Source of the DNA: Prosthecobacter debontii | Lineage (GTDB): Bacteria > Verrucomicrobiota > Verrucomicrobiia > Verrucomicrobiales > Akkermansiaceae | NCBI GenBank assembly: GCA_945873125.1 | Contig: CAMCBV010000007.1 | Span: 5,342-69,341 of the forward strand | DNA length: 64,000 bases | Direction: 5' to 3' | Shown here: positions 5,801-57,914 of the stretch, piece by piece | How positions within the stretch are numbered: position 1 is the first letter of the stretch | How the letters are laid out: each line of letters opens with the position of its first letter | Notes under the pieces: model-generated | The model's input: the letters and a program-made list of their open reading frames with translations, nothing else | What the model was told of the DNA's origin: nothing | Databases searched by the model: none | Program-made: the position numbers and the translations under genes

Positions 5801-5908
5801 CTTCAGACTTTAAACTTTAAGTTTCAAGAGGGTGGATAAAAGAAAAGCCCGGATCATATGAATCTAGGCTCTCCTTTGATGTTTAGAGTTTAAAATTTAG
5901 AATTTAGA
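5801..5908. repeat. Two degenerate heptamer tandem arrays (CTTCAGA/CTTTAAA... and GTTTAGA/ATTTAGA...)
   Basis: 5801-5828 reads cttcaga ctttaaa ctttaag tttcaag. 5881-5908 reads gtttaga gtttaaa atttaga atttaga and overlaps the frr stop. Confidence 0.75.
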
Positions 5909-6473
5909 TCTTCATTAAATCTTCTTCTTTGGAGACTGCCAATTCATCGATTTTTTTTGTATATTTGTTGGTGAGGTCTTGGACTTGTTTTTCGTAATCT
6001 TTGAAAGAATCCTCGGTAAGGATGACATCGGCCTTCATTTTTTTGGCTTCGTCGAGTCCGGCTTTGCGGGCTGAGCGGAGGCGAACCTTGGCTTCCTCGG
6101 CGAGTTGCTTGATGAGTTTGACCATGTCACGTCGGCGTTCTTCAGAGAGTTCCGGAATAGGCACGCGGATGGAGCGGTCCGCAGCAGCTGGATTAAGACC
6201 GAGTTTGGATTCCCGGATCGCTTTTTCGATGTCGCGAGTGGTGGATGGATCGAAAGGTTGCACATTGAGCATGCGGGGCTCGGGTGTATTGATCACGGCG
6301 AGTGTTTTAAGTTTTTGTACACCACCATAAGCATGCACATAGACATCGAGGTTATCAATCAGGGAGGGGGAAGCTTTGCCTGTCCTTACTCCTGAGAAAT
6401 CATGGATGAGGTGTTCAATACCGGACTCCATGTCGGCTTCGACTTTTTTGAGCGTTTGGATGGGATCTAACAT
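5904..6473 (-). CDS. frr: Ribosome recycling factor
   Basis: GVRTGKASPSLID, LNVQPFD, IRVPIPELSEERRRDMVK, VRLRSARK. Lies downstream of pyrH as usual. Confidence 0.97.
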   Translation of the reverse strand: MLDPIQTLKKVEADMESGIEHLIHDFSGVRTGKASPSLIDNLDVYVHAYGGVQKLKTLAVINTPEPRMLNVQPFDPSTTRDIEKAIRESKLGLNPAAADRSIRVPIPELSEERRRDMVKLIKQLAEEAKVRLRSARKAGLDEAKKMKADVILTEDSFKDYEKQVQDLTNKYTKKIDELAVSKEEDLMKI

Positions 6474-6475
6474 AA

Positions 6476-6564
6476 TTTTAAATTCAAGTTTTAAGATATA
6501 AATCTCAGGCTGGAGAAAACAACCTTGCGAACAATTTTGATCATTGAAATTTGAGATTTGGAAT
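6476..6564. repeat. Inverted pair of heptamer arrays between frr and pyrH
   Basis: The left arm is ttttaaa ttcaagt tttaaga tataaat ctcaggc (6476-6510). The right arm is ttgaaat ttgagat ttggaat (6544-6564), whose reverse complement attccaa atctcaa atttcaa resembles the left units. Confidence 0.7.
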
Positions 6565-6566
6565 TT

Positions 6567-7307
6567 TTATTCGCCGTGAACCAGTGTGCCGATGGGTTTT
6601 GAGTGAAGGGCGTGTGAGAGGTTGCCGTTTGGCCCGAGATCGAAGATGATGATGGGTATTTGATTGTCCATGCAAAGACTGAAAGCGGTGGCGTCCATGA
6701 CATTGAGCCGATTTTCCAAACAGTGTTGAAAGGTTACGGTTTCAAAGCGCTTGGCATTCGGGTTTTTACGCGGATCGGAGCAATAAACGCCATCGACCTG
6801 TGTGGCTTTTAGGATGACATCGGCACCCATTTCGCTTGCGCGGAGGGCGGCGGTGGTGTCGGTAGAGAAGAACGGACTGCCCGTTCCTGCTGCGAATATA
6901 ATGACAACCCCATTATCCAATTTGTGCTCGGCCTTCCGGCGGATAAAAGGCTCCGCGACATTTTTCATCTCAATGGCGGACATGACGGTGCAGTCAACGC
7001 CGATGAGCGATAACGCGCCTTCGAGTGCGAGAGCATTCATCACTGTGGCGAGCATGCCAACATAGTCGGCTGTGGCGCGATCCATTCCTCGAGCTGAAGC
7101 GCTTGCACCGCGCCAGAAATTTCCACCGCCAACAACGATGCCGAGTTCCAATCCGGAATCGACGGCTTCTTTGATCTCCGCTGCGATCCGTTGGACGATT
7201 TCAGGAGAGATGTTGTCCGTGGAGCCGGGTTCACGGAGGGCTTCACCACTGAGTTTGAGAATGGCGCGTTTGAATGGGCGTGGGTCTTTGTTGGCAGAGT
7301 TTGGCAT
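6567..7307 (-). CDS. pyrH: Uridylate kinase
   Basis: LKLSGEAL, VVGGGNFWRG, DYVGMLATVMNALAL, GTGSPFFSTDTTAALRASE, MDATAFSLC. Start at ATG 7307 (MPNS). Confidence 0.97.
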   Translation of the reverse strand: MPNSANKDPRPFKRAILKLSGEALREPGSTDNISPEIVQRIAAEIKEAVDSGLELGIVVGGGNFWRGASASARGMDRATADYVGMLATVMNALALEGALSLIGVDCTVMSAIEMKNVAEPFIRRKAEHKLDNGVVIIFAAGTGSPFFSTDTTAALRASEMGADVILKATQVDGVYCSDPRKNPNAKRFETVTFQHCLENRLNVMDATAFSLCMDNQIPIIIFDLGPNGNLSHALHSKPIGTLVHGE

Positions 7308-7421
7308 ATCGGATGAGTGAAGAATGAACAGGATCTCCAAATCGTCCAACCCTGAAGATCATATTCACTGATTTTTTTCGGATCAGGTGAAGCATGAAAG
7401 AGCTAGGCCGTCTTCTGCGAT

Positions 7422-7967
7422 TCAATCATGGGCCGGTGGGACGATAAAAGTCGCTTCGAGCTCTTTGAGAGACGGATTTTTTTCGGTGGCGCCCGTGATT
7501 TTGATTTCCACGTGAAGGGGATCGGTTTGTTGCTGTTGGTATACTTCCAAGGTCTTTTGCAGGGCTGCAAAGGTGATCCTGATGAGCTGGCGCGCGGTCA
7601 TGTCGATTTCTGCAGGGATTTCGATTTTAGAAACGTCCAGAGTCACTGTCATACCTTCTTCGGTCATTTCCGCGGCCATGGTGAGGTTGCAGAGAATTAA
7701 AAGATTGGCCTCTTTGACTTTGTAATTTACGGCATTCGTAGGAATGGAATGAGGGGTGCGTATGGCTTCCACCAAGGCTTCGGGGATTGCGCCTGTGATT
7801 GCCATGGGGCGGGGCATCACGGTGGCTTGAAGAGCCTCACCGATATCTGTGATAATATCTCCCGTGTCTGTGCCGTGGAGTGTGAGTGGTTCGTAAATCG
7901 GGACGACGGAAATGGTGGTCGCCATCAGATTTGAAGACAGCAGCAAAGTGAGTAGGAATGATTTCAT
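7422..7967 (-). CDS. Hypothetical secreted protein
   Basis: 181-aa ORF with signal-peptide-like N-terminus MKSFLLTLLLSSNLMA. No family recognised. Confidence 0.7.
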   Translation of the reverse strand: MKSFLLTLLLSSNLMATTISVVPIYEPLTLHGTDTGDIITDIGEALQATVMPRPMAITGAIPEALVEAIRTPHSIPTNAVNYKVKEANLLILCNLTMAAEMTEEGMTVTLDVSKIEIPAEIDMTARQLIRITFAALQKTLEVYQQQQTDPLHVEIKITGATEKNPSLKELEATFIVPPAHD

Positions 7968-8106
7968 TTTTTAAAGGATGAATGATGTTTGGAACAATTC
8001 CAGTTCCGAATTGACCGATTGGTCGCACATCTTCTAGGGATTTTTCTGCAACGGGTTGATTTGGTAGACGATTGCCTTGGGCACGGGACAATGAACAGGA
8101 GCATAC

Positions 8107-8140
8107 AAAAAAGCCGCCGGACATTGCTGTCGGGCGGCTT
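8107..8140 (-). terminator. Rho-independent terminator of rpmI-rplT
   Basis: Minus strand AAGCCGCCCGACA-GCAA-TGTCCGGCGGCTTTTTT: GC stem, GNRA loop and U tract. Confidence 0.85.
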
Positions 8141-8165
8141 GGTTGATTTAACAGAGGGCTTTCGA

Positions 8166-8540
8166 TTAAGCGGCTTTCGCCTTGTTTTCGAGGGCCTGTT
8201 TGGCTTGTGCAACAATGGCTGAGAAAGCAGCGGCGTCTGTGATGGCGAGATCCGAGAGGATCTTGCGGTCAGCTTCGATTCCGGCTGCTTTGAGGCCTTC
8301 GATGAAACGCGAGTAGGTCATTCCCTCGTTACGGACGGCAGCGTTGATACGCTGGGTCCAGAGGCGGCGGAATTGGCCTTTGCGTTTTTTACGGTCACGG
8401 TATTCGTATTGTTGCGCCTTACGGACAGCGTCCTTGGCGTAGCGGAAGAGCTTCGAGCGGAAACCGCGGAAGCCCTTTGCCCGAAGCAGCGTGCGTTTGC
8501 GGCGCTTGCGGCTTGCTGGGGAATTGGTGGCTCTTGGCAT
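8166..8540 (-). CDS. rplT: 50S ribosomal protein L20
   Basis: [52 protein letters not shown]. Confidence 0.98.
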
Positions 8541-8584
8541 GTTATTGTTTGGTTGTGAACAAGTCGTTTTGTTATCATTCCTTC

Positions 8585-8655
8585 CACAGTCTCACCTGTT
8601 CGTGTCTCCGGTTTATCGGATCAGGCTGTGTAAAGGTCGTCCGTTACGCGGACGA
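8585..8655 (-). promoter_or_regulatory. Candidate structured RNA in the rpmI-rplT spacer
   Basis: Hairpin TCGTCCG-CGTAA-CGGACGA, plus nested stems CACAG/CTGTG, CCTG/CAGG and TCCG/CGGA. Confidence 0.45.
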
Positions 8656-8682
8656 GGTCGTGGGCTGTCGTTTACTTCTCTA

Positions 8683-8892
8683 TCAATGGAAGGGAAGGTT
8701 CTCTTTGACATTCTTGATGTCAGCGGCCGAAACAAGGCCCGCTTTACCGAGAGCGCGTTTGCGCTTGCGGCTCTTGCATTGAAGCAAGTGGCGTTTTCCT
8801 TGATGACGGCGCAGTACCTTCCCGGTGCCAGTGACTTTGAAGCGCTTGGCGACGGCCTTCCGTGTTTTTGCTTTTCCTCCTACTCGTGGCAT
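8683..8892 (-). CDS. rpmI: 50S ribosomal protein L35
   Basis: KAKTRKAVAKRFKVTGTGKVLRRHQGKRHLL. Confidence 0.97.
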   Translation of the reverse strand: MPRVGGKAKTRKAVAKRFKVTGTGKVLRRHQGKRHLLQCKSRKRKRALGKAGLVSAADIKNVKENLPFH

Positions 8893-9039
8893 GGGGCGCG
8901 CAACCTAACGACCTGCGTGTTCTTGGCAAGTCGAAAATGGAAGAAATTTTAAGAAAGTGGATGGGTATCTTCCGTAGCGTTTACAAATGACCTCTTTCCT
9001 CGGGCTTTAGCATGAGTTGTCTCCGGCGGAGGTAATGAT

Positions 9040-9462
9040 CTATTCACCATTTTTCGATAAAACCTCGACTCTGACGGGTGCAATGCCTTTTTTGACAAAA
9101 CCGAGTTTTTCAGCCGTTCCAATCGTGACGTCGATGACTCGGCCTTTTTTGAAAGGGCCACGATCATTGATTGTGACGACTTCGGATTTGTTGTTTGCCA
9201 GGTTGATGACGCGGACTTTGGTGCCCATAGGCAGGGTTTTGTGAGCGGCGGTGGGAGAATGGTTGCACAGTTTCTGGCCACTGGCGGTTCGGGTGCCGGA
9301 GTTGGTTTTAATGGAATACCAAGAGGCTTTGCCTTCTTCGACCGACTTTACCGTGTAGCGCTCTCCTTTTGGGCCCAAGCTACTGGCGCAACTGGTGACG
9401 AGGACGAGACTTGCGAGAGCCAGCATCGCGGACTTTTTGACTTTCCGTGTGTGTAACTTCAT
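9040..9462 (-). CDS. rlpA: Septal ring lytic transglycosylase RlpA family lipoprotein
   Basis: Lipobox LVTSC, GKASWY, TAAHKTLPMGTKVRVINL, INDRGPF...RVIDV. Confidence 0.92.
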   Translation of the reverse strand: MKLHTRKVKKSAMLALASLVLVTSCASSLGPKGERYTVKSVEEGKASWYSIKTNSGTRTASGQKLCNHSPTAAHKTLPMGTKVRVINLANNKSEVVTINDRGPFKKGRVIDVTIGTAEKLGFVKKGIAPVRVEVLSKNGE

Positions 9463-9541
9463 GGGTGTTGGTCCCCGGTTGGGGTAAGACGGCTTTAAAC
9501 CGCGAATTTTGGGTAGGCAAGGAGAAATGTGGTGTTGGAAA

Positions 9542-10495: not shown

Positions 10496-10516
10496 GTTAT
10501 AAGATAAGGGAAAGAA

Positions 10517-31350: not shown

Positions 31351-32454
31351 ATGAGACGTGCGCGTTGGATAGCTCCTTGGAAGGATTCGTTGGAAAAGCC
31401 TTCGATTTACCATTGTATTTCAAGGGTTGTGGAGCGGCGGTATGCGTTTGGGGTGGAGGAGAAGGAAAAGTTCCGGATGTTCATGCGGATGTATGAGAAT
31501 TTCAGCGGATGTCGGGTTTTGTCCTATTGCATCATGAGCAATCACATCCATTTGCTGGTGGAGGTTCCGCCGAAGCCGGTGGAAGGATTTTCCGATGATG
31601 TGTTTCTCAAGCGTCTTTCTGCTCTATACAGCAAGGCGTTTGTGGCGGATGTGGCCGTGCAAATCCACGAAGCCCGGCACGAGGGCGGTGTGGAGGGAGG
31701 AAACCCAGAGCGAGTGGAGGAAATCAAAGCGAGATTCAGTTACCGGATGCATGATTTGGGACAGTTCATGAAAGGGTTGTTGCAACGATTTACCCAGTGG
31801 TTCAACGGTCAGCACAAGCGCAAGGGAAGGCTTTGGGAGGATAGATTCAAGAGCGTGATCGTAGAAAGCGGCACAGCAGCGCGAATGATCGCCGCCTACA
31901 TCGATCTCAATCCCGTTAGAGCAGGAATGGTCGAAGAACCGGCGGACTACCGCTGGAGCAGCTATGGCGAAGCGGTAGGAGGTCGCGTAAAAGACTGTGG
32001 TCTCACGCGATTGAAAGGAAATGGGAAGAAAGCCAGGGAAGGCTTGGTGCGAGCGATCATGTCCGACGATCCCAGCGTGGGATTTGATGCAATGATGTGG
32101 AAGGGGGCATCGAGAGATTATAGAAGATTGATGGATATGGCGTTGGAGCGGAAACCATCGAACGCGAATGCAGTTGTTAGATCGATACAGGTGGAAAAGA
32201 GCCTGGAGTGTAGAGGAGATAGAGGAGAGAAACGACTGGGAGAGTTGAGTATGGCAAAGATCCTGCGGAAAAAAGTGAGGTATTTCTCAGACGGAGCGGT
32301 GATAGGCAGTAAAGAGTTCGTGAACGAAGCGTTCACGGCTGCACGTGAGAGATTTTCAGAGAGGAGAAAAGACGGCGCACGCAAGATGCGGGGCATTGGC
32401 AAAGGAACTGGAGGGACGTTGTGGAGTGTTAGGGATTTGAGGGTGAGGGTGTGA
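31351..32454 (+). mobile_element. HUH (Y1) transposase, REP-associated tyrosine transposase (RAYT)-like
   Basis: IYHCISR, YCIMSNHIHLL (HUH), QRFTQWFNGQHKRKGRLWEDRFKS, YIDLNPVRAGMV..PADYRWSSY. No terminal inverted repeats or target duplication were seen. A REP pair lies downstream. Confidence 0.88.
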
Positions 32455-35282: not shown

Positions 35283-35759
35283 TTACGGAGAAACCGAGAG
35301 GCGTTCAATTTCGGACTCTTGTTCGAAGAGGAAGCCATTTTCCTTGTAGGTTTTAAGGCGGAAGTGGGTGGCTGTCGATAAGACTCCATCCAATGAAGAG
35401 AGTTTCTCGGAAACAAAACGCGCCACCTCGCGGAGATCATGACCTTCGACCACGACCAGCAAATCATATCCACCCGATGCGAGGTAGCATGAAACCACCT
35501 GATCAAAGCGCGCGATTCTCATGGCTAAGCGATCGAAACCACCGCCGCGTTCCGGGGTTAGACGCACTTCGATGAAAGCCGATACCGAGGTGTCTCCCAT
35601 CACTTCTTGGTTGGTCACCGCATGATAGCCGAGAATCGTGCGATCTTTTTCCCATGCAGAAATTTTTGCGGAGACATCGGATTCGGAGAACCCCGTGAGA
35701 TCGGCGAGTTCTTTAATCGATGCACGGGCTTTGCGGCGAAGCGTATTGAGAAGTTTCAT
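35283..35759 (-). CDS. Lrp/AsnC family transcriptional regulator
   Basis: N-terminal HTH, then IEVRLTPERGGGFDRLA, CYLASGGYDL, STATHFRLKTYK. Confidence 0.92.
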   Translation of the reverse strand: MKLLNTLRRKARASIKELADLTGFSESDVSAKISAWEKDRTILGYHAVTNQEVMGDTSVSAFIEVRLTPERGGGFDRLAMRIARFDQVVSCYLASGGYDLLVVVEGHDLREVARFVSEKLSSLDGVLSTATHFRLKTYKENGFLFEQESEIERLSVSP

Positions 35760-35762
35760 TGG

Positions 35763-35790
35763 AATGGTGAAGAGTAAATGGTGAAGTGAG
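35763..35790. repeat. Heptamer tandem array between mscL and the Lrp gene
   Basis: aatggtg aagagta aatggtg aagtgag. Confidence 0.6.
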
Positions 35791-35795
35791 AAAAA

Positions 35796-36284: not shown

Positions 36285-36396
36285 TCACCGCGGAGACACA
36301 GAGGTCGCCGAGGGACGCAGAGTTTTAATTTGAGGGTGAAATGATCTACCGAGCCGGCAGCGTAAAATTGAAGCTTAGAGTTTTAATTTTAAAGTT
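36285..36396. repeat. Single decamer-type arm plus heptamer array downstream of the SNF2 gene
   Basis: caccgcggagacacagaggtcgccgagggacgcagag, then ttgaagc ttagagt tttaatt ttaaagt (36368-36395). Confidence 0.5.
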
Positions 36397-39345
36397 TCAC
36401 TCACGGATCAGTTTTTCGATTTCCTCCGCACTCCACGCAGGTGCATCGTCGGGTGTCAGGGATTCGTTGAGCGACTCGGCCAGGGCTTTTTTGGTGATTT
36501 GGAGACGGATGACTTTTTCTTCAACGGTATTGCGGGTCAGGAGGCGGAATACGGTCACGGGCTTGGTCTGTCCTATCCGGTGGGCTCGGTCGGTCGCTTG
36601 GTCTTCGGCGGCGGGGTTCCACCATGGGTCAAAGTGGATGACGATGTCAGCGGCTGTTAGGTTCAGGCCATATCCGCCCGCCTTGAGAGAGATGAGGAAA
36701 ACGGGTGGACCATCTGGCGATTGGAAATGATCGACCAAGCTTTGGCGATTGCGGGTTTGACCGTCGAGGCGGATGGATAGAATGCCGATTTCAGTAAGGG
36801 CGCTTCCTATTTCGACGAGTTGTTTCTGGAATTGTGAGAAGACGAGAATGCGGCTGCCTGCGGCGATGGATGATTCGGCGATCTCAAGGAGTCGCTCCAA
36901 TTTGGCGGATCGACGCGGTATAGGGAGGCTTTTGAGTTTTTCCGAATCGAACAAGGCTAGGTCGCAACAGCTCTGGCGAAGGCGCAGGAGGGTGGTGAGT
37001 TGTTGCATACGGGCGGCAGCGATCTGGCCTGAAGAGCGGATTTCATCGATCAGCTGAAGACCTTGCTTCTGGATTTCGCGATAGGTGGATTCTTGTTCTC
37101 GTGACAGACTACAGAATTCGTCGATGAGGATTTTGGACGGGAGATCGGGCGCGACCTCGGTTTTGGTGCGGCGAAGGGTGAAGGGAGAGGTTTTAAGCCG
37201 GAGCAGCGTCGCGGTTCGGGCGCGGGTTTCCGGGTTTTTTAATGGGATTTCGTAGCGTTCTTGGAAATCTTTACGGGAACCTAGCCATCCGGGTTGGATG
37301 AAACGGAAGATTGACCAAAGATCCCTCGCGGAATTTTCGACGGGAGTTCCGGTCAGGGCGATCCGATACTTCGCGTTAATTTTGGCGACCGCTTTGGAGT
37401 GATCCGTATCTGGGTTACGAATGAGCGAGGCTTCATCGATCACGGCGATCGAGTAATTCTGGCGGAGGTGCCAGGCGAGGTCCCGGGCAAGGGTGGTATA
37501 AGTGGTCAGGATGACGTCAGTGGGCTCGATTTTCTCCCTCAAATGATCCCTCTTAGTTCCGTGCAGCGTGATGATACGCCGTTCTGGAGCGAAGCGATTG
37601 AACTCGGCTTTCCAGTTTCCGAGCAGGGACGTAGTGACGACGACGAGGACGGCGGAGGGTTGTGAATAAATTGCAAAAAAATGTTCTATACAAGCGATTG
37701 TTTGCAACGTTTTACCTAATCCCATATCATCTGCAAGGAGGGCGCCACTGAACCTTGTAAGGCGATCGACTAGCCATGAATATCCGGCGACTTGGTAGGA
37801 TCTTGGAATAACGTTAAGTAAATGGTTATTAACAAGTTGTGTACATTTTTCATATTTATTCACAAACGTTGATTGTTTGAGAATATTAGCGATTTCAAGG
37901 ATGATCTCGGAGTTGGCCTGCTTTGCAGTAAAACGACCGTTTTGTTGTTGGATGTCGAGATCTTCGAACAGAGGATCGATGAGATTCTCGATATCATTGG
38001 AGAGGATGATGCGCTGATTTGACGGGGAATTCTTGGACCTGAGGAGTCGCCGAATTTCGCTTGAGGGGATGGTTTCACCCGATTCCGTGTGGAAGCTAAG
38101 GTTGAAAACCAGTGATTGGTCATCGGAGGAAAGGATCTCGATTCGGGGAGAAATGACCACGTAGGAAGAAGCCAGTTTTTGGATGGCTGGCGTGAGTTCA
38201 ACCTCCCAGTTGGGTGGTAATTTGCCGATTTTTTGGGTCAGTAGGTCCCTGATTTGATCGGAATCCGTGAGTTCGTATGAGGTATCGGAAAGTGGGTTGA
38301 AATACTGACAAATCTGGCGGCGAGCCTGGTTTTCGGCTTGGGGATTGGCTGATGTCAGGTGGGTTCCATCGAGGCATGGAAGAACTTGTGAATAACTTGT
38401 GTGAAAGGTAGCCTGAAGCTTGGAAGGACCTCCGAAAATTGTGATTTTGAACGCTGGTTCGGCCGAAATGAACTGCAGTGACTCGAACCAAGCAGAGGCG
38501 CTGAAATCGATGAAAATCTGAAGTGGATCGAGTTCTTTGAGAAAACTCGCCAATTCGAGGTTTGCTGGCTTTCCGGAAGCCAGGGCATTAAGCACGGGCA
38601 TGAGGGAAACAGGGATTTCCTTATTTCCGATCTGCGCGATGCTCATGTCAGATAGACGCCAGAAGGAGTCGCCGATTTTGAAAATTTTGTCTGTCCCCGG
38701 GGTGATCTGAATGGTTTTTTCCGAAAGCGTGCAGTCGGCAATGCGAATCTGGGTGCGTGTCTCAATGTTCAACGAGCCCTCTGGGGTGCTGATTTCGGGA
38801 TGATTCCGAGCGTGGTTGAGGAATTCGGAGAGTTGTTTGGCGTTGAGCACCAACTGGAGGTTATTGCTGGAGGTTTGTTTTTGAGCGATCAACCAAGTGG
38901 TGAGTCGTTGGTCCGCAGGCGTGGGAGGTTGGTCGGAGCTACTGAGTCCGATCGCTGCGTGGCCTTTTTCCAGAGCTTTCTGCCAAGGTCCTTGGAAGCG
39001 GACTTTCCATGAGACTTCAGGGATGGGGTTTTCCGTAGGTTTGTTGGGTTTTACTGCAGAGGGCCTCGGAGGAGCTATCAGATGTAACCCTACAGCGATC
39101 GCGTGCGGGCAGAACGCACCTTCGCGTTGGTTTTTGGGGCAGGGGCATTTAGCGTCAAGCCAAGTGGGCGTGCGGGCGGCCACGGTGATTCGGTAAGTTC
39201 GTGTTCCAATTTTTACAGAACCCTGAAACCCATCCGGAGTTGATTCGGAAGAAATGACCGCGCCTGTGTTGAGTAGACCCTGCGCCTCTTTGAAATCCTG
39301 CCATGAAGCGGCTTTTCGGAGAGTGGCTTCATCGAGGGACGACAT
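36397..39345 (-). CDS. SWIM zinc-finger SNF2-family helicase
   Basis: CPC...CPHAIA (SWIM), LADDMGLGKT, DEAS, ALTGTPVEN, LRRTK, LVFSQF, ISLKAGGYGLNLT, WWNPAAEDQATDRAHRIGQ. Confidence 0.93.
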   Translation of the reverse strand: MSSLDEATLRKAASWQDFKEAQGLLNTGAVISSESTPDGFQGSVKIGTRTYRITVAARTPTWLDAKCPCPKNQREGAFCPHAIAVGLHLIAPPRPSAVKPNKPTENPIPEVSWKVRFQGPWQKALEKGHAAIGLSSSDQPPTPADQRLTTWLIAQKQTSSNNLQLVLNAKQLSEFLNHARNHPEISTPEGSLNIETRTQIRIADCTLSEKTIQITPGTDKIFKIGDSFWRLSDMSIAQIGNKEIPVSLMPVLNALASGKPANLELASFLKELDPLQIFIDFSASAWFESLQFISAEPAFKITIFGGPSKLQATFHTSYSQVLPCLDGTHLTSANPQAENQARRQICQYFNPLSDTSYELTDSDQIRDLLTQKIGKLPPNWEVELTPAIQKLASSYVVISPRIEILSSDDQSLVFNLSFHTESGETIPSSEIRRLLRSKNSPSNQRIILSNDIENLIDPLFEDLDIQQQNGRFTAKQANSEIILEIANILKQSTFVNKYEKCTQLVNNHLLNVIPRSYQVAGYSWLVDRLTRFSGALLADDMGLGKTLQTIACIEHFFAIYSQPSAVLVVVTTSLLGNWKAEFNRFAPERRIITLHGTKRDHLREKIEPTDVILTTYTTLARDLAWHLRQNYSIAVIDEASLIRNPDTDHSKAVAKINAKYRIALTGTPVENSARDLWSIFRFIQPGWLGSRKDFQERYEIPLKNPETRARTATLLRLKTSPFTLRRTKTEVAPDLPSKILIDEFCSLSREQESTYREIQKQGLQLIDEIRSSGQIAAARMQQLTTLLRLRQSCCDLALFDSEKLKSLPIPRRSAKLERLLEIAESSIAAGSRILVFSQFQKQLVEIGSALTEIGILSIRLDGQTRNRQSLVDHFQSPDGPPVFLISLKAGGYGLNLTAADIVIHFDPWWNPAAEDQATDRAHRIGQTKPVTVFRLLTRNTVEEKVIRLQITKKALAESLNESLTPDDAPAWSAEEIEKLIRE

Positions 39346-44492: not shown

Positions 44493-44494
44493 GA

Positions 44495-44515
44495 ACTTTA
44501 AAATTTAAACCTCAA
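44495..44515. repeat. Heptamer array just upstream of rsmE
   Basis: actttaa aatttaa acctcaa, nearly identical to 45172-45193. Confidence 0.6.
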
Positions 44516-44591
44516 GGAAGAGGTATGGGCTGCGGCGGAATTTAAGACGGCGACCCCGACTGATCGAGGTAGACGATAGATCGGCGTTACA

Positions 44592-45155: not shown

Positions 45156-45164
45156 GTGGTGGAA

Positions 45165-45193
45165 ATTTTAAACTTTAAATTTTTAAACCTCAA
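45165..45193. repeat. Heptamer array between trpE and trpG
   Basis: attttaa actttaa atttttaa acctcaa. Confidence 0.6.
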
Positions 45194-45207
45194 TGAAGAG
45201 GAGTCGA

Positions 45208-48804: not shown

Positions 48805-50484
48805 TTATCTGTGGGCATGCTCGATCGCATCACAGATGGCAGGGAAGATTTGACGTTTGCGGGAGACGACGCCGGGTGCCGAATAGAGAGTGTCATCAAT
48901 GCGGCTGAAGGGAAGAGCGGCGATGATGTTCTCAGGGCCCACCGCAAGAACCATGCTTTTGAGGAGTGCGACATCGGTGATAACGAGAACCGCAATGTTA
49001 TAGCCTTTTTCAAACTGAAGCTTGCGCAGGGCGATTTCAAGCTCTTCGCGCCGAGCTTTGAATCCGTGAAGGTCGCGTTCCTCGACTTGAGAGACGCTGA
49101 TGAACATGCCTTGTTCATTGAACTCCTTGCGGTCCGTGTTGATGATTTCATCAGCTGTGCCGTTGGCGATGAGTGATCCAACTGCAAAAAATTCCTCTGC
49201 GAACTCCTTGGCGTCAACGCGCGCGATTTCGCTAAGCCAAGTCAGCATTTTACGATCCAGAGTTGTGGTCGTTGGTGATGTCAGGCAAAGGGTGTCGGAT
49301 ACGATGCCGCCACATAGGCACAGGGCGACGCCAGGCTCGGGAATGAGATCCCTGTGGAAAAACTTACGCGCGACGAGCGTGCATGTTGATCCTACCGGTT
49401 CGTTGAGGTAACGAATCGGTTCACGCGACACCAAATCGCCAGAGAGACGGTGGTGATCAATCACTTCCGTAATCGTGGCCTCCTCGATGCCTGTAACGGC
49501 TTGAGCGTATTCGTTGTGATCGACGAGAGCGAAGCGGAGTTTCGGAGGATCGACCAAGTCCGACTTTGCGATCACGCCTATCATGGCGTCCGAGCCGGAT
49601 TCCATTACAGGAAATAGGTCTTGATCGACTGTGACGAGTTCTTTGCGGATTTTGGAGACGGGTTCTTTCGAGTTTACCGAAATAAATTTCGTTTCCATGA
49701 CGTGGCGCACGGTGCGTGAGCACCGGATCAGCGTACTGGCACTTGCCGTGTCTTGTCGGCAACGTAATAGCACCGTTCCCTTGGCAATGGCAAAGTCTAG
49801 AATTTCCTTGGAAATGCTATTATTGCCTGTCACCAACAAGGCACGAGCACCTGACTCAATGGCCAACCGCTGGACGATGGGTCTATCACCGCAGATCACC
49901 AGGAAGTTACGAATGTTGCCTTCCTCAGTCGCCTTTTTGAGACGGGATTTAACCGTGTCTTGGGAAGACGCGCCGACGAGCAGAATGAGATCTTCCTCAT
50001 CGTCCTGTTTACTGATCTGCGCACCCAAACTTTCCGCATCAAGGGTTGCGGCCAGATTGTTTAGTGAAGCATGAACCGTCCGCACACTGATGCCCTGGGT
50101 GTTTGCTGGCAGAAGAAGCTTGAGAAGGTTGATGTATTGCAGCATTCCCGCAACCGTACCATCTTCATTCATCACCGGAACGCAGCGAATCGATGCGTTA
50201 AACATGCGGTTGTAGGCAGTGAGGAATGTATCATAAGGATGTACGTAAATGACGTCGCGTTTGCAGATCATCCCGGCGTTGGTGCGGGCGTCGGTGAGAA
50301 GTTCGGGGGCATCGAAGCCTGCTTTTTCGAGAACCCATTTGGTGCGTTGCGAAATATCACCGCAACGTGCCGCTATTGCATTTGGTTCATCACCACAGGC
50401 ACGAAGAAGTGCAGCATGACCCAAAGCGGAACATACCGCATCGGTGTCAGGGTTTTTGTGTCCGATGACGTAAAAAGGGAACAT
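48805..50484 (-). CDS. ppaC: Mn-dependent (family II) inorganic pyrophosphatase with CBS and DRTGG domains
   Basis: GHKNPDTDA, a CBS pair, an LVICGDR DRTGG-like insert, LVDHNE, IDHH, PVGSTCT, SDTL, VVSRKRQ. Confidence 0.92.
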   Translation of the reverse strand: MFPFYVIGHKNPDTDAVCSALGHAALLRACGDEPNAIAARCGDISQRTKWVLEKAGFDAPELLTDARTNAGMICKRDVIYVHPYDTFLTAYNRMFNASIRCVPVMNEDGTVAGMLQYINLLKLLLPANTQGISVRTVHASLNNLAATLDAESLGAQISKQDDEEDLILLVGASSQDTVKSRLKKATEEGNIRNFLVICGDRPIVQRLAIESGARALLVTGNNSISKEILDFAIAKGTVLLRCRQDTASASTLIRCSRTVRHVMETKFISVNSKEPVSKIRKELVTVDQDLFPVMESGSDAMIGVIAKSDLVDPPKLRFALVDHNEYAQAVTGIEEATITEVIDHHRLSGDLVSREPIRYLNEPVGSTCTLVARKFFHRDLIPEPGVALCLCGGIVSDTLCLTSPTTTTLDRKMLTWLSEIARVDAKEFAEEFFAVGSLIANGTADEIINTDRKEFNEQGMFISVSQVEERDLHGFKARREELEIALRKLQFEKGYNIAVLVITDVALLKSMVLAVGPENIIAALPFSRIDDTLYSAPGVVSRKRQIFPAICDAIEHAHR

Positions 50485-50519: not shown

Positions 50520-50616
50520 TCTTAAATCTCAAGTTTCAAAGTTCAAATTTCAAGGAAAGACATAGGAATAGAAACGAATCCCCAGAGTTGCCTGAAAGTT
50601 GGAATCTAAAGTTTCA
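50520..50616. repeat. Heptamer arrays between ppaC and argS
   Basis: tcttaaa tctcaag tttcaaa gttcaaa tttcaag (50520-50554), and a partly inverted cctgaaa gttggaa tctaaag tttca (50591-50616) overlapping the argS stop. Confidence 0.72.
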
Positions 50617-52359: not shown

Positions 52360-52383
52360 GGGTAAAAACGAAAAGAAATTTGG

Positions 52384-52512: not shown

Positions 52513-52577
52513 CGATGGAAAAATCTTGGCTGATGAAAAAAGGCTGACGGGAAAGGAGAAAGATCGTCGGACCCGAC

Positions 52578-53066: not shown

Positions 53067-53195
53067 AAAAATCCGGTATTAAAAGAGAGTGTTTCTTGGC
53101 GCTTGGAGGGGGGTAGTTATCCATCCTGCGCAGGGGGTGCAAGAAGTTTTGCAAATTGTAAGTTGCCCAAAAGAGTACAAGATTCGTGTAATGGA

Positions 53196-53310
53196 GTGGC
53201 ATTCCGCCACAGGCTCTGGACTGCTGCGGTTTTGATCCGCAGCTCTTAAGGTGCATGAATTCAAACCGAGAACCTCGGTTACATCCTTGATTTTAGGATT
53301 ACTTAACCTT
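53196..53310. ncRNA. Candidate structured RNA (four consecutive hairpins)
   Basis: GTGGC/GCCAC, GCTGCGG/CCGCAGC, AACCGAG/CTCGGTT and ATCCT/AGGAT. AAGGT/ACCTT closes the last two hairpins. Confidence 0.4.
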
Positions 53311-53357
53311 GCATCATGGCTCTCCCAACGGCATGGAGAGGGGCGCAGAGCGAACAC

Positions 53358-54311
53358 ATGACCCGAACAGACAAAGAAATCATCATTGGCACGCGTGGCA
53401 GCGAACTGGCATTGGTGCAGGCCACGGCGACCCAAGGCTTGTTGTCTGGTAAATTTCCGGACTGGGTCATTAGCCGTAAAATCATCAAGACCACGGGCGA
53501 TCGCCGGACGGATGTGTCGCTGGCTGATGTGGCCAAGGCCGAGGGCACGTTTGATAAAGGTGTGTTCATCAAGGAGCTCGAAGAAGCGTTAGCCGATGGG
53601 TCGGTTGATATCGCGGTGCATAGTTTGAAAGACATGCCGACGGTAATCGATCCGAGATTCGAACTGGCAGTGACCCTTGAGCGCGCTCCGGTTCGCGATG
53701 TGCTGCTGACGAAACAAGCGGGTGGATTGCCCGCACTTAAAGCAGGTGCAAGAGTCGGCACCAGCAGTGTAAGGCGCGCGAAGCAGATCGCGTTTCTGCG
53801 GCCTGATCTGGTCTTGGTGGATCTTCGCGGAAATGTCCCCACCCGTATTGAAAAGCTCGCGCAAGGTGACGACTACGATGCGATCCTCTTGGCTGAGGCT
53901 GGTTTGATGAGGTTGGGGTTCATTCCGGAATCTCCAGAAAGCAACGAGGAGCGGGTTAGCGCATCGGTGCCGGTTTTTTGCACGCGATTGGCGGAGGATA
54001 TTTTTTTTCCCGCAGCAGGGCAGGGAGCAATTGGTTTGGAAATTCGCAAAGGTGATACTCGTTCACTGGAGCTCGCTATGGCGATCGGACATGCGGAAAC
54101 GTGGACCAAAGTTACCGCTGAGCGAGAGTTTTTGCGTTTGCTCGACGGTGGCTGCCATACGCCGGTCGGGGTATACTCCCATCTTTCCGGCGGTCAGATT
54201 CATCTTCACGCCCGCGTGTTTCCAGAAACCGGCGGGCAACCTAAAATCGGATCTGCTACAGACACCGATCCCATCAAAGCGGCACTCAAACTTTTTCAAT
54301 CCCTCAAATGA
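53358..54311 (+). CDS. hemC: Porphobilinogen deaminase (hydroxymethylbilane synthase)
   Basis: IIGTRGSELAL.Q, TTGD, KGVFIKELE, AVHSLKD, GTSSVRR, RGNVPTR, LDGGCHTP. An upstream ATG at 53316 is possible. Confidence 0.96.
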   Translation: MTRTDKEIIIGTRGSELALVQATATQGLLSGKFPDWVISRKIIKTTGDRRTDVSLADVAKAEGTFDKGVFIKELEEALADGSVDIAVHSLKDMPTVIDPRFELAVTLERAPVRDVLLTKQAGGLPALKAGARVGTSSVRRAKQIAFLRPDLVLVDLRGNVPTRIEKLAQGDDYDAILLAEAGLMRLGFIPESPESNEERVSASVPVFCTRLAEDIFFPAAGQGAIGLEIRKGDTRSLELAMAIGHAETWTKVTAEREFLRLLDGGCHTPVGVYSHLSGGQIHLHARVFPETGGQPKIGSATDTDPIKAALKLFQSLK

Positions 54312-55816
54312 CATCCACAGGAATCTGCTATCTAGTCGGCGCCGGCCCAGGCGACCTCGGTCTTGTAACTTTACGCGCAAAGGAGTGCATCGAAATCGCC
54401 GATGTTCTCGTTTATGATGCGCTGAGCAGTCCTGATTTATTGAGATGGACCAAGCCAGGTTGCGAAAAAATCTACGTTGGCAAACGGGCAAAAGACCATG
54501 CGGTGCCGCAGGATCAGATCAATCAGATCATCGTTGATTTCACCAAAGCGGGTAAAATCGTCACTCGTTTGAAGGGAGGAGACCCGATGATTTTCGCACG
54601 CGGTGGAGAAGAAGCGGCGGAATTGGCGGATGCAGGTGTGGCGTTTGAAATCGTTCCCGGAATCAGCTCGTCCATTGCCGGTCCAGCTTATGCGGGTATT
54701 CCTGTGACGCATCGCGATCACAATACCCAGCTCACGATTTTCACGGGACACGAAGATCCCACCAAAGGCTATACATCGATTGATTACGCCCAGCTTGCCA
54801 AAGCTCCCGGCACGAAAGTTTTCCTAATGGGTGTCGCTCGTTTGAGAGAAATCACCAGCTCTTTTATCGGTCATGGAGCCGCGGCGGATACTCCGATCGC
54901 ACTTGTGCGTTGGGCTACCACAGGTTCGCAATGGACGATTGAAGGAACATTGGAGACCATCGCGGACATCGCCGAGAAAGCTGGATTTTCATCGCCTGCG
55001 GTGGCGGTGATCGGAAACGTTGTTAAGGAGCGCGCAAAGATCAATTGGTTTGAAAAGCGCCCGTTGTTCGGAAAGAAAATCGTCGTGACCCGTACGCGGG
55101 AACAAGCCGGAGACCTTAGTAAGCGCCTTCAAAATCTCGGCGCGGATGTGATCGAGCTACCTACGATCCGGATTGAACTTCCCGAAGACCGTGAAGGTTT
55201 TGCTGAAGGAGTCACTCATGCGCATGAATATGATTGGTTGATTTTTACCAGTCCGAACGGGGTTGAGAAATTCTTCGACGCGTTCTTCGCCACCTATGAC
55301 GATGCGCGGAGTCTGGGAAATCCGAAGATTGCCGCCATCGGACCGGGAACCGCTTCGAAAATCCGCGAATACCGGATCGGGGTTGATTTGTTGCCGAAGA
55401 AATTCGTCGCAGAAGGTTTGTTGGAGGCGTTCAAGGAAATCAACATTGAGAACCAAACCGTGCTGTGGATCAAAGCCGCAGAATCCCGCGATGTGATTTA
55501 TGACGGACTCATGAAACTCGGCGCGATAGTCGATGAATGCATCGCGTATCGCACCGTGCCGGAGTCCGATGATTACACAGGAGCCCAAGCCAAATTCATT
55601 GAAGAAGGCGCTGATATGGTGACGTTCACTTCGTCATCCACAGCTGAACATTTCTTTGCACTCGGCTTGCCTTGGCCGGAAAAATGCGTTGCGGCAAGCA
55701 TAGGCCCCGTAACTTCGGAAACACTTAAATCGTTAGATCATAAACCGGCCGTCGAAGCTGCACAGCACGACATCCCAGGACTGGTCAAAGCGATTGAGAA
55801 TTATTTCAAGAGGTAA
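54308..55816 (+). CDS. cobA: Uroporphyrinogen-III C-methyltransferase / uroporphyrinogen-III synthase fusion
   Basis: LVGAGPGDLGL, YVGKR, RLKGGDP, VPGISS, followed by a HemD domain VVTRTREQ, FTSPNGV, FTSSST. Confidence 0.94.
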   Translation: MTSTGICYLVGAGPGDLGLVTLRAKECIEIADVLVYDALSSPDLLRWTKPGCEKIYVGKRAKDHAVPQDQINQIIVDFTKAGKIVTRLKGGDPMIFARGGEEAAELADAGVAFEIVPGISSSIAGPAYAGIPVTHRDHNTQLTIFTGHEDPTKGYTSIDYAQLAKAPGTKVFLMGVARLREITSSFIGHGAAADTPIALVRWATTGSQWTIEGTLETIADIAEKAGFSSPAVAVIGNVVKERAKINWFEKRPLFGKKIVVTRTREQAGDLSKRLQNLGADVIELPTIRIELPEDREGFAEGVTHAHEYDWLIFTSPNGVEKFFDAFFATYDDARSLGNPKIAAIGPGTASKIREYRIGVDLLPKKFVAEGLLEAFKEINIENQTVLWIKAAESRDVIYDGLMKLGAIVDECIAYRTVPESDDYTGAQAKFIEEGADMVTFTSSSTAEHFFALGLPWPEKCVAASIGPVTSETLKSLDHKPAVEAAQHDIPGLVKAIENYFKR

Positions 55817-55957
55817 AAGACTTGGGGTTGATGCACCGTCGTCGACCTTGATAGAAATCCCAAGCGCGCGATTTTTTTTTAAACTTGTCGTCTGTGGTCT
55901 CCGAATGGATTGCCTTTTATTCGTAATCACGGTTGGCGACAGCGCTCGGCCCCGTAT

Positions 55958-56377
55958 TTAAATATCATTTCTGATCTCACGCAGTGGATTCAGAACAAAA
56001 GGTCGCTCGTAGATGCGCGGGTGGGGTAACTGCAGCTCGGGATGATCGAGTGTGATATCACCAAAAAGTAGGATATCGATATCGATCAGCCGTGGGGCAT
56101 TGCGTAGGGGATGGGGCTCGCGACCGAGTTTTTTTTCAATCGCTTGGGTTTGCTCGAGAAGTTTTAACGGATCGATCCCTGAATAATGAAAATCGACTGC
56201 GGTGTTGAGAAAACGTGGGGAATCGGGTGGGCAGTCCTGGGGTTCCGTATCGTAGAGTGAGGCAATCAGAAAGGGTTCACCGACACTGGCGATTTGGCGT
56301 AGCTCGGCGATAGCGGCAGAGATGTTTGCTTCTCGGTTACCGAGGTTAGAGCCGAGGGCGGTTGCGACGCGTGGCAT
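55958..56377 (-). CDS. folK: 2-amino-4-hydroxy-6-hydroxymethyldihydropteridine pyrophosphokinase
   Basis: ALGSNLG, FLNTAV, IEKKLGR, PRLIDIDILL, PHPRIYERPFVL. Confidence 0.95.
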   Translation of the reverse strand: MPRVATALGSNLGNREANISAAIAELRQIASVGEPFLIASLYDTEPQDCPPDSPRFLNTAVDFHYSGIDPLKLLEQTQAIEKKLGREPHPLRNAPRLIDIDILLFGDITLDHPELQLPHPRIYERPFVLNPLREIRNDI

Positions 56378-56396
56378 GTTTCAAAGACGATGGATT

Positions 56397-57863
56397 TTAC
56401 TCTTCGAGGTTATGGAGTTTGGAGATGCCGTAACTTGCTTGAACTCGGCGATTTGCTGCCTCGACTTCGGCACTGGGGATGACGAGAGGGCGGTTCGCTC
56501 CATAAAGTTCGATGGTATGGAATTCCGGAGGATTTTCCTTATTCAGAAGTTCTTGAGCTTGGCTGAGGCTCGTGACAGATATACCGTTGATTTTTTCCAC
56601 GGCAAGACCGGTAAAATCATCCATTTGTGAAGTCACGGAATCGGGTTGGATCTGGGTGAGGATGATGATGTCCTTTTTCTCCGTGAATATTCCTTTTGAA
56701 ACATAATCGGTATACAGCCTGCGCACGGTTACATCTGTAAATTTCGAGGCGGCGAAAAGGTTGGTATCCAGCGGTTGAAATACCAGTCCAGCAAAGACGA
56801 CGTATCGGGGTTTAGCCTCGTAGCGGATGGAATACATCCGGGCGGCCGGAAGAGGTTTGATTTTAATATCAAAATCCAGTGAAACACCTTCTCGAATCAC
56901 TCGGGCAGCGACTTGATCGCCGCTGAATTTACGCTCGACAATTTCGGCGAGATCGACCTTTTCCCCATCGATCATGACTTGTCCCGCGGAGTCGATCGTT
57001 TGTCCGTCGAGTGAGATGAGCACGTCGCCGGATTTCAAAATGCCATCTGCGGAGCTGGTTGGCGTGACACGGGTGATGAGGATACCCTTGTCATCATTGG
57101 GTAAGCCCAGAGCCTTGCGCATCGCAGGATTGTAAAGTGGGAAATCGCTGATTCCGAGTTCGGCGTATTGATCGTAACTTCCATCGGTGATATCCTTCAT
57201 GAAACGGTTTATGACCGGAGTTGGAATGATGTAGCCGGTGTTATCCGCTTGGCGGAGACCTTGAAAAGCAACACCAACGACTTTTCCGTTTTGGACCACA
57301 GGGCCGCCGGAGTTGCCGGGGTTGATGGCGGCATCGATTTGGACGATAAGATGAGAATCGGCACGACTGTGCGAGTAAGGTTGGAAGTCGATGCGTGAGA
57401 CGATGCCTTTGGTGACGGACAGACGGGATCCACCGACAGGATAGCCAATCACGGTGACTTCGGATTCGAGCTGAGGAGTATCACCGAAAGAAAATATTGG
57501 AAAGTCCTTGAAGTCTGAGAAGTCCTCAAGTGAGAGCAAAGCGAGGTCACAATCATGAGCGATGAAATCGACTTTTGCAGGATATTTTTTCGAGCTGCCG
57601 TGGACGGTGACAAGGATGCGATTTTGATTCGATGCAACGTGTGCGTTGGTGAGAATCTGATTTTTACCAACAATGAATCCGGTTCCAATGCCGCCACCAA
57701 ATTGACCGGAGTTCCAGGGAGTTTGGTAATCGGGATTGATCGTATCCACAGCGATCCGAACAACGGATCGATAGATGGCCGAGTTATTCGCAGGCTGGTT
57801 TTGTGCTTCAAGAAGCTGGAGACTGATTGCCGTGAGAACGAGAACGGGAATAAGACGAATCAT
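56397..57863 (-). CDS. DegP/HtrA-type serine protease with PDZ domains (plant Deg2-like)
   Basis: Signal peptide. Catalytic triad in LTNAH, CDLALL and AINPGNSGGP. VIGYPVGG and C-terminal PDZ segments. Confidence 0.92.
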   Translation of the reverse strand: MIRLIPVLVLTAISLQLLEAQNQPANNSAIYRSVVRIAVDTINPDYQTPWNSGQFGGGIGTGFIVGKNQILTNAHVASNQNRILVTVHGSSKKYPAKVDFIAHDCDLALLSLEDFSDFKDFPIFSFGDTPQLESEVTVIGYPVGGSRLSVTKGIVSRIDFQPYSHSRADSHLIVQIDAAINPGNSGGPVVQNGKVVGVAFQGLRQADNTGYIIPTPVINRFMKDITDGSYDQYAELGISDFPLYNPAMRKALGLPNDDKGILITRVTPTSSADGILKSGDVLISLDGQTIDSAGQVMIDGEKVDLAEIVERKFSGDQVAARVIREGVSLDFDIKIKPLPAARMYSIRYEAKPRYVVFAGLVFQPLDTNLFAASKFTDVTVRRLYTDYVSKGIFTEKKDIIILTQIQPDSVTSQMDDFTGLAVEKINGISVTSLSQAQELLNKENPPEFHTIELYGANRPLVIPSAEVEAANRRVQASYGISKLHNLEE

Positions 57864-57879
57864 GTTGGGGAGTAAGCTA

Positions 57880-57914
57880 AAGAGTGAAAAGTGAAGAGGG
57901 AAGAGTGAAAAATG
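57880..57914. repeat. Heptamer tandem array upstream of the protease gene
   Basis: aagagtg aaaagtg aagaggg aagagtg aaaaatg. Confidence 0.72.

Follow-up and report, generated by a model that had tools for sequence, protein, structure and literature searches.

The 64,000-nucleotide window analysed here (contig C7, positions 5342-69341, of a Prosthecobacter debontii genome of 2.88 Mb in 83 contigs) carries short tandem arrays of degenerate 7-nt units between its genes, and the question is what these arrays are. The initial annotation listed at least nine of them, all without a gene, and took them for empty or decayed sites of the insertion system that also holds the gene at 60235, which encodes a four-helix-bundle (4HB) protein of family PF05635 (S23p). 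We consider that the arrays are, on balance, probably gene-less copies, single or inverted-paired, of the arms that enclose PF05635 genes in cassettes, and not scars of former genes. The arms are oriented, lie flush with the ends of open reading frames (ORFs), persist between species and are resized in whole units, and sequence alignment showed that each arm class of the window matches the arm of one resident cassette. A chance origin of the period-7 arrays is excluded. In the following, the present genome is called G000 and its contigs Cn:position, G003 is a sister species and G002 a complete congener; the flanks compared between G003 and G000 are ~78-90% identical. The database relatives carry the labels Akkermansiaceae or Luteolibacter.

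Period-7 arrays and the arms of 4HB cassettes

Arrays were called by self-match at a lag of 7 nt, with thresholds of 18/21 or 12/14 matches in the genome and 11/14 in the window, and intergenic DNA (the 13% of the genome outside crude gene calls) was compared with its dinucleotide-preserving shuffles. At 11/14, the intergenic DNA of the window holds nine lag-7 arrays against 0.30 expected from 200 shuffles (shuffle maximum 3), so the observation of nine arrays is real. In the genome, 99 intergenic arrays at 12/14 face 1.7 +/- 1.2 in shuffles, a ~58-fold excess; the period-7 signal, which had been proposed as a check, is thus clearly higher than in shuffled intergenic sequence. The same count gives 1 array for lag 5, 3 for lag 6, 16 for lag 8, 42 for lag 9 and 12 for lag 10. 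Over the whole genome, 18/21 windows yield 54 lag-7 arrays and 0-11 arrays for each of the other lags from 2 to 13, and 108 of the 146 lag-7 arrays called at 12/14 fall into intergenic DNA. The heptamer pattern T3R4 has 75 matches in the genome, and its 6- and 8-base analogues have 0-1. As a separate observation, the intergenic counts for lags 9, 8 and 10 (42, 16 and 12) also exceed the ~1.7 expected from shuffles, and therefore more periodic repeat families exist besides the heptamers.

The arms share a common plan, in which an inner motif (CTCTTCCTTGAGG in the main class) is followed by three to five heptamers. When oriented, the main class reads 5'-CCTCTTCCTTGAGG-(TTTAAAG/TTTAAAA/TTTGAAA)3-5. 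The polarity is fixed, with the heptamer end towards the neighbouring ORF and the inner motif away from it. The array end points towards a start codon on the same strand in 45 of 68 intergenic AT-class arrays (32 within 17 nt) and towards the stop codon of an oppositely approached gene in 22 (21 within 20 nt), which extends to the whole genome the earlier remark that the arrays abut start or stop codons; from the far end of the arm it is 4-1200 nt to the next gene. A CTCTT, TCTTC or CTTCC motif lies within 18 nt on the inner side of 32/68 arrays and on the outer side of 4/68 (background 4%; p 4e-8). Since the inner motif is non-repetitive, the arrays are oriented copies of each other. With regard to the units, the A3N-T3 type (AAACTTT, AAATTTC, AAAATTT) accounts for ~70-80 arrays and AGTGAAG/TTCACTC for ~15, and the remaining arrays are built of AGACAGA, GGTTCTT or some one-off units. 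There are at least four multi-copy classes besides the one-off units, and no single unit dominates the genome. Period 7 is common to these differing classes, and the family is indeed defined by period and not by unit sequence.

The reference gene at 60235-60612 matches Pfam PF05635 (E 4.9e-31), TIGR02436 and PDB 2GSC (E 2e-14). The genome contains three intact PF05635 genes and one frameshifted one, each within inverted heptamer-periodic arms. The frameshifted gene belongs to the cassette C17:53208-53658 (C17b), which has main-class arms and reads stop-TAA-(AAATTTT...)-CAAGAAAGAG-TTCA-ATG ... CCTCTTCCTTGAGG-(TTTAAAA...)-ATG of the next gene. Intact 130-aa homologues of this gene (66-98% identity) are common in related metagenome bins, and in four diverged relatives an intact C17b-type gene stands between the same two neighbours and within the same arms, inner motif included, in the order stop-AATTTTAAACTTTAAATTTTAAATCT-CAAGGAAGAG-N4-ATG[4HB]...CTCTTCCTTGAGG-TTTAAAATTTAAATTTTAAAGTTTC-ATG. 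A 37-nt consensus of the C17b arm, built only from relatives and searched without gaps at <=8 substitutions, has 45 copies in G000, 10 in 946 kb of G003 and 0 in 400 kb of G002. In the same samples, the arm of the C33 cassette has 12, 9 and 0 copies and the right arm of the reference cassette (C7) 13, 1 and 0; reversed and shuffled arm controls give 0-2. Seven window sites are in register with the C17b arm, and two sites of the AGTGAAG class with the C33 arm. The PF05635 search of G002 gave no match, and its lag-7 arrays number 5 per Mb, equal to its other lags, compared with 51 in G000 and 67 in G003. These copy numbers, the alignments in register and a congener that lacks both genes and arrays bear out the proposal that the gene-less arrays and the cassette arms are one family, and a comparison of arm sequences agrees that the arrays resemble the arms around the gene at 60235 in architecture but not in unit sequence. 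Congeners have between 0 and 328 copies of the main pattern. Furthermore, among the flanks of 80 PF05635 loci sampled across many phyla, 19 upstream and 25 downstream arms (44 in total) have lag-7 matches of >=12/14, compared with 0-6 arms for each of the lags 5, 6, 8, 9 and 10 (0-3 upstream or downstream).

Several minor observations concern the same genes. In the C17b gene (C17:53250-53542), the frameshift lies close to the 3' end and reflects either a decaying copy or an assembly error; 130-aa homologues that are 98% identical are intact elsewhere. The inner motif was considered as a hallmark of every PF05635 cassette and rejected, as it lies upstream in just 16/79 diverse loci and is mostly purine richness. 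A link to a diversity-generating retroelement or reverse transcriptase was considered and not retained; the sole reverse-transcriptase (RVT_1) gene of the genome (C53:9875-10333, a 512-aa ORF) lies on another contig and adjoins no 4HB gene.

The sites of the window are as follows; TRF denotes a period-7 call by Tandem Repeats Finder, lag-7 the match fraction, and consensus the arm consensus.

5798..5832, minus strand: AT-class arm (site 5801), inner motif CCACCCTCTTGAAAC and then heptamers, outer end towards the tRNA-Ala gene (5665-5737) and its promoter region; TRF 5798-5820; lag-7 0.81; aligns with the consensus
5833..5865, minus strand: core between the arms at 5801 and 5881, situated downstream of frr and resembling a terminator hairpin (GAGAGCCUAGAU...AUCCGGGCUUUUCUUUU); canonical terminators occupy this core in relatives, and the hairpins within the frr 3' arms vary in sequence from species to species (relatives L062, L063 and L066)
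5866..5908, plus strand: AT-class arm (site 5881), inner motif GGCTCTCCTTTGATG, then TTTAGAG TTTAAAA TTTAGAA TTTAGA, the last unit overlapping the frr stop codon (5904-5906); TRF 5882-5908, 3.9 copies; 5869-5905 matches the 37-nt C17b consensus with 8 substitutions
6474..6512, minus strand: degenerate AT-class arm (site 6476), the final 39 nt of the frr leader, outer end flush with the frr ATG (6471-6473); lag-7 0.50, yet in register with the consensus; the orthologous arm is clearer in G003 and G008
6540..6566, plus strand: AT-class array TTGAAAT TTGAGAT TTGGAAT TTT, flush with the pyrH stop (6567-6569); TRF 6544-6566; lag-7 0.70
35760..35795, minus strand: TTCACTC/AGTGAAG-class array (site 35763), filling the 36-nt spacer from the mscL stop (35796) to the start codon (35757-35759) of the adjacent gene; in alignment with the C33 right arm; lag-7 0.52, weak alone
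36360..36396, plus strand: AT-class arm TTGAAGC TTAGAGT TTTAATT TTAAAGT T (site 36368), flush with the stop (36397-36399) of the SNF2-family helicase gene, identified by Pfam; lag-7 0.58; aligned with the consensus
44493..44527, minus strand: AT-class arm forming the rsmE leader (site 44495), CCTCTTCCTTGAGG TTTAAAT TTTAAAG TTC and then GTG, that is two units and the inner motif; lag-7 0.52; aligns with the consensus; orthologue in G015, G016 and G008, not in G002
45156..45203, minus strand: AT-class arm filling the trpE-trpG spacer, TAA-TCGACT-CCTCTTCATTGAGG-TTTAAAA ATTTAAAG TTTAAAA TTTCC-ACCAC-ATG; TRF 45163-45183; C17b consensus match at 45164-45200
50520..50560, minus strand: AT-class arm (CTTTCCTTGAAATTTGAACTTTGAAACTTGAGATTTAAGA) 35 nt ahead of the ppaC start codon (ATG at 50484), within the leader; TRF 50524-50553, 4.3 copies; aligned with the consensus
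50590..50613, plus strand: degenerate partner array (site 50591), adjoining the argS stop (50614-50616); lag-7 0.41, the weakest named site
57864..57915, minus strand: TTCACTC/AGTGAAG-class array in the leader of the DegP-like protease gene (Pfam Trypsin_2/PDZ), ending 19 nt before the ATG at 57863; TRF 57883-57915, 4.7 copies; aligned with the C33 right arm at a mean column identity of 70%
60197..60654, plus strand: reference cassette between metK and ahcY, with left arm 60197-60234 (AGACAGA units), gene 60235-60612 and right arm 60613-60654; TRF 60212-60228 and 60607-60654

The five weaker sites (6476, 35763, 36368, 44495 and 50591) are, except for 50591, nonetheless in register with a cassette-arm consensus by alignment. 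The gene names given earlier at these junctions (frr, pyrH, mscL, SNF2 helicase, rsmE, trpG, DHH-CBS pyrophosphatase, argS and DegP-like protease) are right. The arrays of rsmE and trpG are indeed nearly identical, as had been described: both read CCTCTTC(C/A)TTGAGGTTTAAA and then differ in unit number. On the one hand, the frr-pyrH and ppaC-argS arrays, described as inverted pairs around 33-36 bp cores, are inverted in orientation. On the other hand, neither of these pairs folds beyond shuffles (pyrH-frr, z -0.7; argS-ppaC, z +0.3). The foldable pair is 5801/5881, which had been listed as separate sites: the RNA of 5795-5910 on the minus strand folds at -23.9 kcal/mol (z -2.4), and 0/200 shuffles fold as well. 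A simple terminator scan of 5600-6700 called no terminators, and the 5833-5865 core hairpin was not called either. On the plus strand at 44526-44546, an ATG and a six-codon mini-ORF (ATGGGCTGCGGCGGAATTTAA) come after the inner motif (AAGGAAGAGGT) of the rsmE arm, probably by coincidence.

Persistence of the arms and their possible role in mRNA

When G003 was compared at the sites of 54 comparable G000 arrays, the orthologous site had lag-7 signal for 39 (72%), against 1.7 in shuffles, and in the reverse comparison most G003 arrays were found in G000 too. The identity between G000 and G003 is 59% in arms, 36% in other intergenic DNA and 70% in coding ends. Because the arrays are positionally conserved and better conserved than the adjacent intergenic DNA, they are not decaying relics. 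Their size can change in place: at C34:15735, a clean 21-nt indel represents a three-unit expansion from one unit, and other length differences between G000 and G003 arrays amount to 14 nt. The array at C41:25570 lies in sequence taken as coding by the gene calls and differs from that of G003 L120 at the same position in each of its four units (AAAATTC vs AAATTTC), indicating a concerted change. Further gains, of ~90-290 nt, are of the insertion type and contain an arm or a pair of arms; in the insertion-type differences at C15:8824, C5:93813 and C16:14977, no target duplication was seen, and single arms prevail in the genome. An excess of 7n+1 indel lengths is probably an alignment artefact.

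We consider that the arrays are most likely long-lived cis elements that form the leaders or trailers of mRNAs, the genome being one that lacks Shine-Dalgarno sites. A Shine-Dalgarno-like motif is present in only 6% of 1078 ATG genes of the genome, G is depleted upstream of the starts (10-15% at -20 to -1), and C stands at -1 in 51%. The 3' end of the 16S rRNA was not found by a conserved-motif search of the assembly. CAAGGAAGAG was rejected as a Shine-Dalgarno sequence: whereas cassettes place it 4 nt ahead of the ATG of the 4HB gene, a start codon at a distance of 11-14 nt is found for few of the gene-less arms.

The arrays may arise and change size by replication slippage, and the arms may be copied between loci by recombination, gene conversion or an activity linked to the 4HB protein. 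They would be retained by working in the mRNA of a nearly Shine-Dalgarno-free genome. In this case, a single arm before an AUG would provide a G-poor, A/U- or pyrimidine-rich, unstructured leader, and a single arm after an ORF would provide a stop-rich trailer with stop codons in three frames. At C40:10621, a conserved TTGACG-N16-TATACT promoter lies upstream of the arm, and the arm there would therefore be the whole 5' untranslated region. An inverted pair would form a stop-to-start hairpin, able to enclose a terminator or a 4HB gene as in the 23S rRNA intervening sequence, and RNase III cleavage or translational coupling would then be possible. In a filled cassette, the 4HB gene and the gene downstream of it would both have their start regions hidden in the stem.

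Several points weigh against the arrays being copies of cassette arms. At the frr-pyrH, trpE-trpG and ppaC junctions, which had been singled out for comparison, 0/30 relatives have a PF05635 gene at E 1e-8 or better, argS-ppaC being compared by gene coordinates only. The link with the gene family consists of a single clean contrast, that with G002, and of a weak correlation, not corrected for phylogeny, between main-pattern copies and the number of PF05635 genes (rho 0.35, p 0.057; within the genus rho 0.48, p 0.036). Among TAACTGA arrays, a heptamer repeat of other bacteria discussed below, 0/138 in 888 kb adjoin a PF05635 ORF. Since slippage alone can build an array from one unit, as at C34:15735, some arrays may be unrelated to cassettes. 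The indel lengths are a multiple of 7 in 0/55 cases, as counted in global alignments, in which repeats are aligned unreliably. Single arms greatly outnumber the ~12 inverted pairs of the genome, unlike in typical miniature inverted-repeat transposable elements, and both pairs stressed in the initial annotation fold no better than chance. We know of no copying mechanism for the arms, and the 4HB protein is, to our knowledge, no recombinase. Every role at the RNA level is one that we infer from sequence.

Alternative explanations

The arrays could instead be independent heptanucleotide microsatellites, of the long simple-sequence repeat type or the cyanobacterial short tandemly repeated repetitive type, which slip at each locus, are tolerated or selected as leaders and are unrelated to the cassette arms. 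We regard this as rather unlikely. In its favour, the 21-nt expansion from a single unit happened in place, many unit types are one-off, and the trpG and frr junctions have differing units across the genus. The trpG leader arrays of other species are built of TTTAAAG, TTTGAAA, CTTTGAA, the 8-mer ATTTCAGC, CCAATAACCTCTAA, GACTTTC or CCCACTG, with none in some species. In many bacteria, no long simple-sequence repeat is as common as the heptamer, and slippage was proposed as the cause (Mrazek 2007, as cited in PMC4679880); GGGAATC arrays of Xanthomonas are placed alike without any gene (PMC4692102), and the TAACTGA count also fits. However, independent slippage cannot yield 45 copies of one 37-nt arm in which the 13-nt inner motif is non-repetitive and the unit variants follow the same order. 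The inner motif is strictly polar, the same arm surrounds an intact 4HB gene in the four relatives, and G002, of the same genus, has only baseline lag-7 signal.

In a second alternative, the arrays would be a binding-site regulon. PF05635 pentamers would bind to heptamer arrays, as RNA or as DNA, with one unit for each subunit, and the gene-less arrays would be operator-like; each 4HB paralogue would control the translation or stability of many genes, and its own arms would be autoregulatory. This is unlikely in our view. The typical array does have 3-5 units, and the one relative in the PDB, 2GSC, was deposited with five chains. The arm classes match resident cassettes; AAAAATC/AATCATC, the commonest class of G003 and rare in G000, matches the arms of two 4HB genes that G003 itself carries; and G002 has neither genes nor arrays. 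A heptamer-binding protein has also been postulated for Nostoc and Beggiatoaceae (bioRxiv 10.1101/2022.06.06.494920; PMC4679880). Against these points, the classes GGTTCTT, CTCTAAC and GACTTTC have no resident cassette, some arrays are 12-18 units long, TAACTGA arrays have no local PF05635 link, and the correlation with gene count is weak.

A third alternative is the one first proposed, namely that each array marks the junction of a past insertion of a 4HB or other small gene that was later lost or decayed. It is very unlikely in general and largely refuted at the named junctions. The architecture equals that of filled cassettes, the frameshifted gene at C17:53250-53542 makes decay a process that does occur, and short-core hairpins such as C47:17562-17649 resemble cassettes minus their cargo. 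However, none of the 30 relatives is filled at the three junctions, and the frr-pyrH spacers read in relatives are <=158 nt. A lineage-specific hidden Markov model, run on all six-frame segments of the genome, found the four 4HB genes only, with no remnants beside arrays and none at the nine sites, and the cores between paired arms are 30-36 nt without a PF05635 ORF. In many congeners, a lone array of the type at 6540-6566 fills the entire 17-37 nt pyrH-frr spacer, which leaves no space for a past gene. The inverted pair at this junction is found in G000, G003 and G008 with mutually unrelated cores, and G002 has a plain terminator 3' of frr without arms. The metK-ahcY cassette is present in G000, G010, G023, G025 and G029, and elsewhere the spacer is 21-64 nt long and has no arms; gene and arms therefore come and go together, so that loss of this gene coincides with loss of its arms. 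The arms are also constrained and not decaying. Accordingly, the view of the arrays as scars of genes once present at these junctions is not supported.

Finally, it is hardly credible that the arrays are classical signals or mobile repeats, that is promoters or UP elements, intrinsic terminators, G-quadruplexes, or repetitive extragenic palindromic (REP) sequences and their REPIN doublets moved by the REP-associated tyrosine transposase (RAYT)-like protein of the window: TTGAGG-N16-TAAAGT resembles a sigma-70 promoter, a scan called promoter-like sites inside two arrays, the 5801 arm is immediately upstream of the tRNA-Ala promoter region and REPs likewise occur singly or as inverted doublets after stop codons, but the GTAG motif was not found in the arms and no lag-7 array surrounds the RAYT-like gene 31351-32454. 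The implied -10 (TAAAGT) ends 3 nt before the ATG, and transcripts would therefore start inside the ORF. A general promoter role was rejected, with arms lying inside operons (trpE-trpG) and downstream of the conserved promoter at C40:10621. A terminator role was likewise rejected, as only the 5801/5881 core is terminator-like; the CCUC/GAGG stem of the inner motif is just 4 bp and thus not a terminator. G-quadruplex formation is impossible here because the units are AT-rich and have no G runs.

Known heptamer repeats and related elements

Records of heptanucleotide repeats date back to 1990 in cyanobacteria and were later extended to Xanthomonas and Beggiatoaceae. We know of no agreed source or function for them. 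Gene-less heptamer arrays at ORF ends are already known from Xanthomonas, Nostoc and Beggiatoaceae, and the present arrays are an instance with AT-rich units. The statement that no mechanistic description of such a system is known was fair, but the arrays themselves had already been published (PMC4692102, PMC4679880).

The intergenic heptamers GGGAATC of Xanthomonas and GGGGA(C/T)T of Nostoc (Rehm et al. 2015, PMC4692102) agree with the present arrays in period 7, in being ~90% intergenic and mostly 0-50 nt from an ORF end, in overlapping stop codons, in strand polarity at starts and stops, and in junctions shared by sister species with variation in length and sequence. They include 70-75 convergent (inverted) pairs per genome, and inverted pairs occur here too. 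On the other hand, their units are G-rich and were read as G-quadruplex formers, whereas the main classes here are AT- or pyrimidine-rich, so that G-quadruplexes cannot be the general explanation of heptamer repeats. Each of those genomes has one dominant unit instead of several classes, and neither an inner motif nor a link to PF05635 cassettes was described there (PMC4692102). The TAACTGA direct repeats of marine Beggiatoaceae, Cyanobacteria and Bacteroidetes (MacGregor 2015, PMC4679880) and the heptamers close to start codons of Nostoc (bioRxiv 10.1101/2022.06.06.494920) also stand as 2-6 gene-oriented units a few nt upstream of starts, in regions without Shine-Dalgarno sites, and a role in translation and a binding protein have been proposed for them. 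TAACTGA differs in being a single unit across phyla, for which inverted pairs are not reported as a rule, and in lacking adjoining PF05635 ORFs.

The cassettes, in turn, resemble the 23S rRNA intervening sequences with an ORF in Coxiella and Leptospira, where S23p is PF05635 (PMC4990558). There, a PF05635 gene lies in the loop of a stem formed by terminal inverted repeats (28 bp in Coxiella), the elements behave like units and are sporadically distributed, and RNase III cleaves the stem (PMC4990558). Unlike them, the present arrays are gene-less, lie between protein genes and are mostly single arms unable to form a stem; heptamer periodicity of the intervening-sequence stems is not described in PMC4990558, and our literature search found no paper that joins PF05635/S23p with heptamer repeats. 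With REP/REPIN-RAYT systems, the arms have in common that they are short intergenic singlets and hairpin-forming inverted doublets in tens to hundreds of copies, with long vertical persistence and a cognate gene flanked by the same repeats. They differ in the missing GTAG, in being tandem heptamers and not a single palindrome, in having a 4HB protein and not an HUH transposase, and in that no movement was observed.

A bolder possibility, which we offer tentatively and consider doubtful, is that PF05635 pentamers serve specifically to read heptamer arrays, with each subunit assigned to one 7-nt unit, and that each paralogue with its cognate arm class constitutes a RAYT/REP-like system. The 4HB protein would then maintain, copy or act through the arms at gene boundaries, and the arrays would vanish once a lineage loses its 4HB genes, as in G002. 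If this is true, one account would cover the heptamer repeats of Cyanobacteria, Xanthomonas, Beggiatoaceae and these Verrucomicrobia.

As for the arrays as copies of cassette arms, the matching arm around an intact PF05635 gene in relatives ties heptamer repeats to one gene family, and the inner motif, the matching cassette and a congener without genes and arrays make the heptamer-repeat puzzle directly testable. The arms may also show how leaders are constructed in a genome without Shine-Dalgarno sites. In annotation, known arms help to position start and stop codons and account for many conserved intergenic blocks.

Three further observations concern long arrays and another kind of core. Within C25:39410-39538 lies (CTCTAAC)x18, whose last unit is 10 nt before an ATG. 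At C41:21456-21753, an inverted pair (GGTTCYT)12 / (AGGAACY)14 surrounds a 115-nt core. A conserved core of 70-115 nt (TCCGTCCAAGCGGTCAGGACTTCGTC ... GCTAGCGCTCACTCGGC) occurs five times in the genome (C19:23666, C25:21217, C41:21551, C58:5707 and C58:11536) and also on G003:C61 upstream of a 4HB gene; as it is flanked each time by arrays of differing units, it represents a second kind of cargo between arms.

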